Part shown: positions 21,357 to 21,923 of the stretch, piece after piece
Numbering within the stretch: position 1 is the first letter of the stretch
Layout: the number at the start of each line of letters is the position of its first letter
From: an uncultured Heliobacteriaceae bacterium
GTDB lineage: Bacteria; Acidobacteriota; Blastocatellia; RBC074
Assembly: GCA_964468345.1 (NCBI GenBank)
Contig: CAYXVZ010000012.1
Span: forward strand, 10,122-74,121
Reading direction: 5' to 3'
Length of the DNA: 64,000 nt
Program-made: the position numbers and the translations under genes
Notes under the pieces: generated by a model
What the model was told of the DNA's origin: nothing
Database searches by the model: none
Seen by the model: the letters and a program-made list of their open reading frames with translations, nothing else

Positions 21357-21923
21357 CTATTTCTTCTTCAACATATTGCACGCCTGGAACGCCGCGGAAG
21401 GATCGATGGCGGAGCCGCCTTCTTCGACGTGGCGGATAATGCCTTCCTTATCCACGACGAAGGTGGCGCGCATGCCGAACCCTTGCGCTTCGTTGAAGAC
21501 GCCGTAGTCCTTGACGGTTTTGCGCTGTTTGAAATCGCTGAGCAGCGGGAAACTCAATCCCTTGGTTTCGGGGGCGAGGTCTTCCGACCAGCGCTTGAGC
21601 GCGGGAACGCTGTCGACGCTGATGCCGAAAATCTTTGTGTCTGCATCGGTGAATTTGGCGATATCAGCCTGATACGCCTTCATCTCCTTCGTTCAGCCAC
21701 CGGTGAAGGCCAGTACATAAAAGGCCAGCACAACCGTATTCTTGCCCTTGAAATCGCTCAGCTTGTACGTTTTGCCATCCGTGCCCGGCAATGTGAAATC
21801 GGGCGCCGCATCGCCGACCTTGAGATGCGTTTTGATCGCGGGCGGCGCAGCCGGTTGCTGTGCCATCGCGCTCAAACACATTGCGGTCAACAATGCGCTC
21901 AGGATGAAGATCCTTTTGAGCAT
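21357..21923 (-). CDS. AhpC/TSA-family peroxiredoxin with an in-frame TGA at the peroxidatic cysteine position. Candidate selenocysteine peroxiredoxin, or a pseudogene.
   Basis: ORFs 21693..21923 (signal peptide ... [13 protein letters not shown]) and 21357..21683 ([11 protein letters not shown] ... [12 protein letters not shown]) share one frame. They are separated only by TGA at 21693..21695, giving FTGG-U-TKEM. This aligns to the Prx motif FTFVCPTE with U at the Cys position. A candidate stem-loop (GGCGUAUC-AGGCU-GAUAUCGCC) starts 16 nt downstream of the UGA. Confidence 0.5.

Follow-up and report, generated by a model that had tools for sequence, protein, structure and literature searches.

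A stretch of 64,000 nucleotides from contig CAYXVZ010000012.1 (assembly GCA_964468345.1, positions 10,122 to 74,121 of the forward strand; hereafter the window) carries on its minus strand a gene that very probably encodes an exported AhpE-type peroxiredoxin with selenocysteine (Sec) as its peroxidatic residue. The gene is interrupted at codon 77 by one in-frame UGA, which had been proposed to specify Sec in a preliminary description of the locus made from its sequence. That interpretation is supported by the conservation of the UGA, its match to a catalytic Cys, purifying selection on the frame and a hairpin that is linked to the UGA. Three features by which a selenoprotein gene is recognised are found here: a UGA aligned to Cys, conservation of that UGA amid coding constraint, and a conserved stem-loop with G in its loop. 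This pattern is the standard signature of Sec insertion that depends on SelB and on a selenocysteine insertion sequence (SECIS), and our comparative analysis thus points to insertion of Sec at U77. In coordinates of the window, the gene is laid out as follows.

21934..21940, minus strand: putative Shine-Dalgarno-like AAGGGAG, 10 nt 5' of the ATG
21923..21357, minus strand: complete selenoprotein gene, read as one frame from its translation
21923-21921, minus strand: start codon ATG
21861..21923, minus strand: predicted Sec-type (secretory) signal peptide of 21 residues, then QQP
21714..21716, minus strand: codon of Val70, at the site of the conserved Pro in PxxxTxxC, aligned to AhpE Pro38
21695..21693, minus strand: in-frame UGA, the Sec77 codon, motif T74-G-G-U77, peroxidatic residue
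21678..21657, minus strand: SECIS-like hairpin GGCGUAUCA-GGC-UGAUA(U)CGCC, minimum-free-energy (MFE) fold from RNAfold
21468..21470, minus strand: codon of Arg152, the conserved active-site Arg, aligned to AhpE Arg116
21378..21380, minus strand: codon of Cys182, an invariant C-terminal Cys that may be the resolving residue
21359-21357, minus strand: stop codon TAG

The reading frame comprises 188 codons (M1 to K188), with 76 sense codons before the TGA and 111 after it, and the TGA is its sole interruption. The open reading frames (ORFs) of 76 and 108 aa from which the gene was first recognised are both present in the ORF list and share a frame. They had been described as separated by the TGA alone; the TGA does lie between them, but so do three sense codons, ACG AAG GAG (TKE). 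Because these codons precede the ATG of the second ORF, the read-through product is 188 aa long (76 + Sec + 111) and not 184 aa as originally stated, a spacing already implied by the junction FTGG-U-TKEM given at the time. The N-terminus has a basic n-region, a hydrophobic core and an A-x-A site, as read from the sequence, and an equivalent hydrophobic N-terminus ending in ..A(L/A)AQ is present in all orthologues. Since this is the form of a Sec-type signal peptide, and is matched in all orthologues, the peroxiredoxin is predicted to be exported to the periplasm.

The TGA is a constant feature of the family. A species scan that took one genome per species returned 80 loci with 56-86% identity, mostly labelled as Acidobacteriota of the class Blastocatellia (Pyrinomonadaceae, Blastocatellales); the other labels among them are Heliomicrobium sp. 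(7 loci) and 'uncultured bacterium' (1 locus). Codon 77 is TGA in 85 of 85 orthologous loci (80/80 species representatives and 5/5 same-species contigs), and a further 46 metagenomic loci also carry TGA. Past it the frame stays open for 105-115 codons, with no second in-frame stop in 82 distinct sequences. The ratio of non-synonymous to synonymous variation (pN/pS) is 0.15 upstream and 0.25 downstream of the TGA, with pS at about 0.65 and variation mostly at third positions; purifying selection acts on both sides. TGA also ends 9 of the 31 long ORFs of the window, the adjacent kinase gene among them, and the organism uses the standard code. In a protein search we found dozens of 108-aa C-terminal fragments with 79-100% identity, so the same split occurs in many relatives; the search also returned full-length relatives with W or C at the critical position.

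The Heliomicrobium labels concern seven records of metagenome-assembled genomes (loci L011, L012, L022-L025), whose orthologues are 76-85% identical to the Blastocatellia gene and have the same TGA and hairpin. Heliomicrobium is a genus of Bacillota in the NCBI taxonomy, and the labels are probably a taxonomic labelling problem in those records.

More distant homologues, with Cys, fix the position of the UGA within the active site. A metagenome scan seeded with the Cys form P0106 yielded 32 Cys-codon loci (30 TGC and 2 TGT; 28 distinct sequences) with the context FYPAAFTGGCTKEM, additional loci of the window's own clade, and two more TGA subclades: in one, of 9 sequences, the active-site Pro is still there (FFPAAFTGG-TGA), and in the other Ile takes its place (FFIAAFTGG-TGA). 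Because TGC or TGT is found at the same codon, the UGA sits exactly at the peroxidatic Cys of the homologues; it also aligns with Cys45 of AhpE, and the correspondence between UGA and Cys that had been proposed from the motif held in these alignments. Orthologues with a Cys codon and no hairpin had been named in advance as evidence against a selenoprotein; such homologues do exist, but they are the expected Sec/Cys pattern and no refutation. One Cys form near the Pro-keeping Sec subclade (L170:1501-2031, protein P0103, TGC) retains a relic of the SECIS hairpin, which fits recent Sec/Cys interconversion, and another, P0005, has its Cys in a Val-type, Sec-like context. The placement of these two, beside or inside Sec clades, suggests recent interconversion. 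In a rough neighbour-joining tree without support values the Sec and Cys forms are interleaved, and the data suggest several Sec/Cys interconversions in the family.

The hairpin is coupled to the TGA. The preliminary description had drawn it as GGCGUAUC/AGGCU/GAUA-U-CGCC with a bulged U and GG in the loop, and this structure was found at 21678..21657 on the minus strand; RNAfold adds one A-U closing pair, leaving a GGC apical loop (21667-21669) on a stem of 9 bp with the bulged U at 21661. Counting the U of the UGA as 1, the hairpin spans columns 18-39, and pairing begins at nucleotide 15 after the UGA, behind a 14-nt spacer, so the start at 16 nt given earlier needs correction. Over 74 distinct sequences 93% of cells are paired. 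Both partners have changed in three pairs (pairs 18-39 and 21-36 from G-C to A-U, pair 24-32 from U-A to C-G). The covariation score exceeds that of every shuffle, and pairing drops to 9-64% when the register is slid. When the other Sec subclades are included, pair 24-32 is U-A in 21, C-G in 14 and unpaired in 0, a change that joins a synonymous TAT-to-TAC with a non-synonymous GAT-to-GGT. Eight sequences have Gln in place of Ala, and in these a perfect helix of 9 bp, now lacking the bulge, is restored.

Codon usage in the same region is equally constrained. The codon directly after the UGA is ACG in 83 of 83 sequences, and the codons of the upper stem and loop (TAT CAG GCT GAT) show next to no variation at synonymous sites; the hairpin codons have a normalised synonymous entropy of 0.27, versus 0.70 elsewhere (Mann-Whitney p = 2.8e-4). 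All TGA forms of three Sec subclades have the hairpin, whereas a conserved hairpin was found in 0 of 28 Cys-codon sequences, whose MFEs lie between -2 and -9 kcal/mol, which share no structure and which vary freely at the synonymous sites that are frozen in TGA forms. A small apical loop that contains G, directly 3' of the UGA, is what has been described for bacterial SECIS elements (PMC1088965). The case for the hairpin is evolutionary, not energetic.

Several results weigh against Sec decoding. The energy of the hairpin is unremarkable (z = -1.1 versus shuffles of a 54-nt stretch), and the lower stem occurs in two registers, so that RNAalifold on the 74 sequences retains only 4 apical pairs. 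A search of the hairpin region with covariance models, as had been recommended, came back negative: no Rfam family matches the hairpin, either at the gathering threshold or at E <= 10. ARAGORN was run on the window and the fetched loci, and tblastn against 1.22 Mb with E. coli SelA, SelB and SelD probes; no selA, selB, selD or tRNA(Sec) was detected in the 64-kb window, as previously noted for this stretch, or in the 1.22 Mb of orthologue flanks. An all-against-all search for in-frame TGA codons in 1.2 Mb of those flanks gave no second conserved selenoprotein gene, the peroxiredoxin family being the only credible match.

When the window was scanned for further pairs of ORFs that share a frame and are split by TGA, only noise from alternative frames emerged. 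Acidobacteria that decode Sec are documented (PMC1794560, PMC12013277). With SelA of Solibacter usitatus (supplement of PMC1794560) as the search seed we obtained at least 8000 matches at E <= 1e-20, and SelA homologues are abundant in Acidobacteria; among the best 120 matches listed, all are Bryobacteraceae-like and none lies on a contig carrying the peroxiredoxin gene. The Sec trait is documented for the phylum; for Blastocatellia and the source genome it would be implied only by the gene itself.

We weighed three other accounts of the interrupted frame. Public gene calls break the gene into two fragments of 76 and 108 aa, and a nonsense mutation that had struck the catalytic Cys codon of a now decaying gene would fit that annotation. 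It would not fit a TGA that is the same in 85/85 orthologues down to 56% identity, the 105-115 open codons downstream with their pN/pS of 0.25, the invariance of the active-site Thr, the Arg and the C-terminal Cys, or a hairpin that is conserved and covaries, and the chance that we are looking at a pseudogene is vanishingly small. Gene callers also predict the 108-aa ORF as a gene of its own, and AAGGAG lies directly 5' of an ATG at 21683-21681 in the window, so that translation could in principle stop at the UGA and restart at the AUG three codons on, the two polypeptides then assembling non-covalently. However, the AAGGAG abuts the ATG with zero spacer, and the restart codon is Leu in 45% of orthologues, often CTA, CTC, CTT or TTA, which are unable to initiate. 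Such a split enzyme would moreover be without a peroxidatic residue although the rest of its active site is invariant, and both the covarying hairpin and its absence from the Cys forms would be left unexplained; we regard this arrangement as extremely improbable.

It is also conceivable, if very unlikely, that the UGA is read without selenium, either because it has been reassigned to Trp or Gly or because the hairpin promotes read-through by a near-cognate tRNA for Trp or Cys. Read-through can in principle be stimulated by a hairpin that follows a stop codon, and several proteins of the family stand in databases at full length with W at codon 77. These W forms are, however, a gene-calling artefact, and one able to mislead alignments: the DNA of L089 has TGA and does not yield the listed protein under translation table 11, and in some JGI calls (among P0001-P0045) the protein runs to full length with Trp at this codon, the caller having translated TGA as Trp. 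A general reassignment is at odds with the use of TGA as the terminator of 9/31 long ORFs of the window and with the conservation of only this one in-frame TGA. The homologues carry Cys at codon 77, not Trp or Gly, either of which would abolish catalysis at the peroxidatic position. The position of the hairpin, its small G-containing loop and its bulged U fit the description of bacterial SECIS elements (PMC1088965), and the strict coupling of hairpin to TGA likewise speaks against read-through without selenium.

A further question is which peroxiredoxin the gene encodes. For the profile search Cys was put in place of the stop at codon 77. The product matches Pfam AhpC-TSA (PF00578; E 8.9e-39) across the whole 124-position profile, and Pfam Redoxin (E 3.8e-26); the thioredoxin-fold AhpC/TSA domain of peroxiredoxins is found both by Pfam and in a model of an orthologue. 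The best NCBIfam match is PrxU (NF040737), at 78.2 bits versus a cut-off of 270, and the remaining NCBIfam peroxiredoxin and selenoprotein models all stayed below their cut-offs. A score so far under the cut-off means that the protein is no orthologue of PrxU but belongs to a different, AhpE-like subfamily. The top PDB sequence matches are all M. tuberculosis AhpE (Rv2238c; phmmer, E 2e-23), and the alignment pairs U77 with Cys45, T74 with Thr42, R152 with Arg116 and V70 with Pro38. T74-G-G-U77 thereby aligns with T42-G-I-C45 of AhpE; the Thr is invariant in our alignments, as is R152 (alignments A1 and A3), and C182 is invariant in Sec and Cys forms.

We used AlphaFold to model the orthologue P0005, which bears Cys, in place of the window protein. 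The model (predicted local distance difference test score, pLDDT, 88) is likewise closest to AhpE in Foldseek, with a template-modelling (TM) score of 0.87-0.90 and 38-40% identity. In this model the peroxidatic Cys stands at the start of helix alpha2 (helix 72-83) and the invariant C-terminal Cys is located in the last helix. Closest to AhpE both by sequence and by the modelled fold of its orthologue, the window protein can be placed in the AhpE subfamily. C182 is a candidate for the resolving Cys.

The conserved Pro of the peroxiredoxin motif PxxxTxxC is missing from this protein, which has Val70 in its place. The position is occupied by V, I, A or F in 85/85 orthologues of the window's clade; the Cys forms, like one other Sec subclade, still have Pro there. 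We considered whether Sec necessarily goes with the absence of this Pro and ruled that out, because a sister Sec subclade keeps the Pro (FFPAAFTGGU).

From these features, and by analogy with the known pathway of Sec insertion in bacteria, we can outline how the gene would be expressed and how its product would work. As the ribosome nears UGA77, SelB-GTP-Sec-tRNA(Sec) would bind the hairpin 14 nt 3' of the codon, and the UGA would then be decoded as Sec without termination, giving a 188-aa precursor. The signal peptide would direct export and be cleaved after about Ala21. Once the enzyme is mature, T74 and R152 would position the selenolate of U77, which would reduce a hydroperoxide and be converted to a selenenic acid. 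The acid might be resolved by the invariant C182 (through a selenenylsulfide) or by an external thiol; recycling could fall to a putative thioredoxin-like reductant.

Peroxiredoxins that carry Sec in a TxxU motif form an established family with an experimental foundation (PMC13188914, PMC1088965, PMC5029168). PrxU of Eubacterium acidaminophilum is named as the founding member (Sohling et al. 2001, as cited in PMC13188914); 43 Sec-peroxiredoxin genes were counted in the Sargasso Sea data (PMC1088965), and 91 in 78 organisms in 2016 (PMC5029168). The present gene resembles them in its fold (PF00578), in having Sec for the peroxidatic Cys in T-x-x-U, in the hairpin inside the ORF after the UGA, in its widespread Cys homologues and in being, as is usual for such genes, mis-annotated as truncated or split. 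It differs from PrxU in belonging to the AhpE-like subfamily, and in its signal peptide and the Val that replaces Pro; the Pro of PxxxTxxU is called highly conserved in a 2026 review (PMC13188914). Unlike the known TxxU Sec-peroxiredoxins, it occurs in Blastocatellia, and in the literature collection we searched no publication names Blastocatellia together with selenocysteine; papers that name both AhpE and selenocysteine exist.

Common to AhpE itself (PDB 1XVW, 1XXU, 4X1U, 5ID2) and the window protein are T-x-x-Cp, the Arg of the active site and the blocks FPLLSDF and YGVFNE, but where AhpE has Cys45 and Pro38 the window protein has Sec77 and Val70, and whereas AhpE is a cytoplasmic 1-Cys enzyme with neither a signal peptide nor a C-terminal Cys, the window protein has both. 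Prx-like thiol:disulfide oxidoreductase selenoproteins (UxxC/UxxU, PF00578) belong to the same superfamily and follow the same logic of Sec for Cys, but they carry a thioredoxin-like UxxC (PMC13188914) where the window protein has TGGU-TKE; the three residues on either side of its Sec include no Cys, so it is of the true peroxiredoxin type. The hairpin resembles bacterial SECIS elements (of the E. coli fdhF type, and the bSECISearch consensus) in forming a stem-loop within the ORF directly 3' of the UGA and in having a small G-containing apical loop, a bulged U and a distance to the UGA that is fixed within the family. The fdhF element has its bulged U on the 5' side, and its minimal hairpin lies 11 nt from the UGA. 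The window hairpin has no sequence similarity to that of fdhF, its bulge is on the 3' side and its spacer is 14 nt.

Across the 80 loci no conserved redox partner was found beside the gene, and the only common element of the neighbourhood is a downstream Ser/Thr kinase gene, at 25/80 loci. Between the peroxiredoxin stop codon and the kinase gene the window has imperfect inverted repeats, G-rich and C-rich, at 21199-21239 and 21298-21348, with arms of up to 36 nt, 75-88% complementary, and GGGGCGA-like units. The length of this spacer varies from 59 to 167 nt among the same-species contigs; the repeats could act as a terminator or an insulator, or could simply be a variable repeat.

Elsewhere in the window, a tRNA gene with anticodon CAU (52717-53408, plus strand) is interrupted by a 619-nt group I intron in the anticodon loop. 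Its 5' half is GGCCCCTTAGCTCAACGGTTAGAGCAGCGGACTCA, and its 3' half contains the T-arm GTAGG-TTCGAAT-CCTAC and the acceptor strand AGGGGCC. ARAGORN detects the interrupted gene solely when introns are allowed, and the intron core (53148-53331) matches Rfam RF00028 with 55 bits (gathering score 50). Because of its G1-C72 pair, the tRNA looks like elongator Met or Ile2 and not like an initiator. Group I introns in tRNA genes are known from cyanobacteria and proteobacteria. Directly 3' of this gene, at 53403-53594 (both strands), lies a long hairpin or inverted repeat with sub-threshold matches on both strands to several plant microRNA-precursor models, which reflect a long stem only.

The gene is a previously mis-annotated member of an already known kind of selenoprotein, and knowledge of how selenocysteine is encoded is unchanged by it. 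Selenoprotein genes are almost universally mis-annotated (PMC1088965); here the same-species contigs are called as separate products of 76 and 108 aa, and the NCBI entry QQS46835.1, 109 aa long, bears the name 'redoxin domain-containing protein'. The family could be re-annotated as one selenoprotein in at least 80 species of Blastocatellia. The gene would imply that a widespread class of soil Acidobacteria decodes selenocysteine and has a selenoenzyme outside the cytoplasm. A broader reading that takes these points together is speculative, and we hold it to be rather unlikely: the exported AhpE-type clade would have lost the Pro permanently, selenium would relax the constraint if the higher intrinsic reactivity of Sec permitted that loss, and aerobic soil Acidobacteria would be selenium-dependent. 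If true, selenium would relax an otherwise invariant constraint of peroxiredoxin active sites, and a dominant aerobic group of soil Acidobacteria would rely on it for periplasmic peroxide defence. The family also offers a natural series, Cys/Pro, Sec/Pro and Sec/Val, which could be used to ask what selenium buys a peroxiredoxin.

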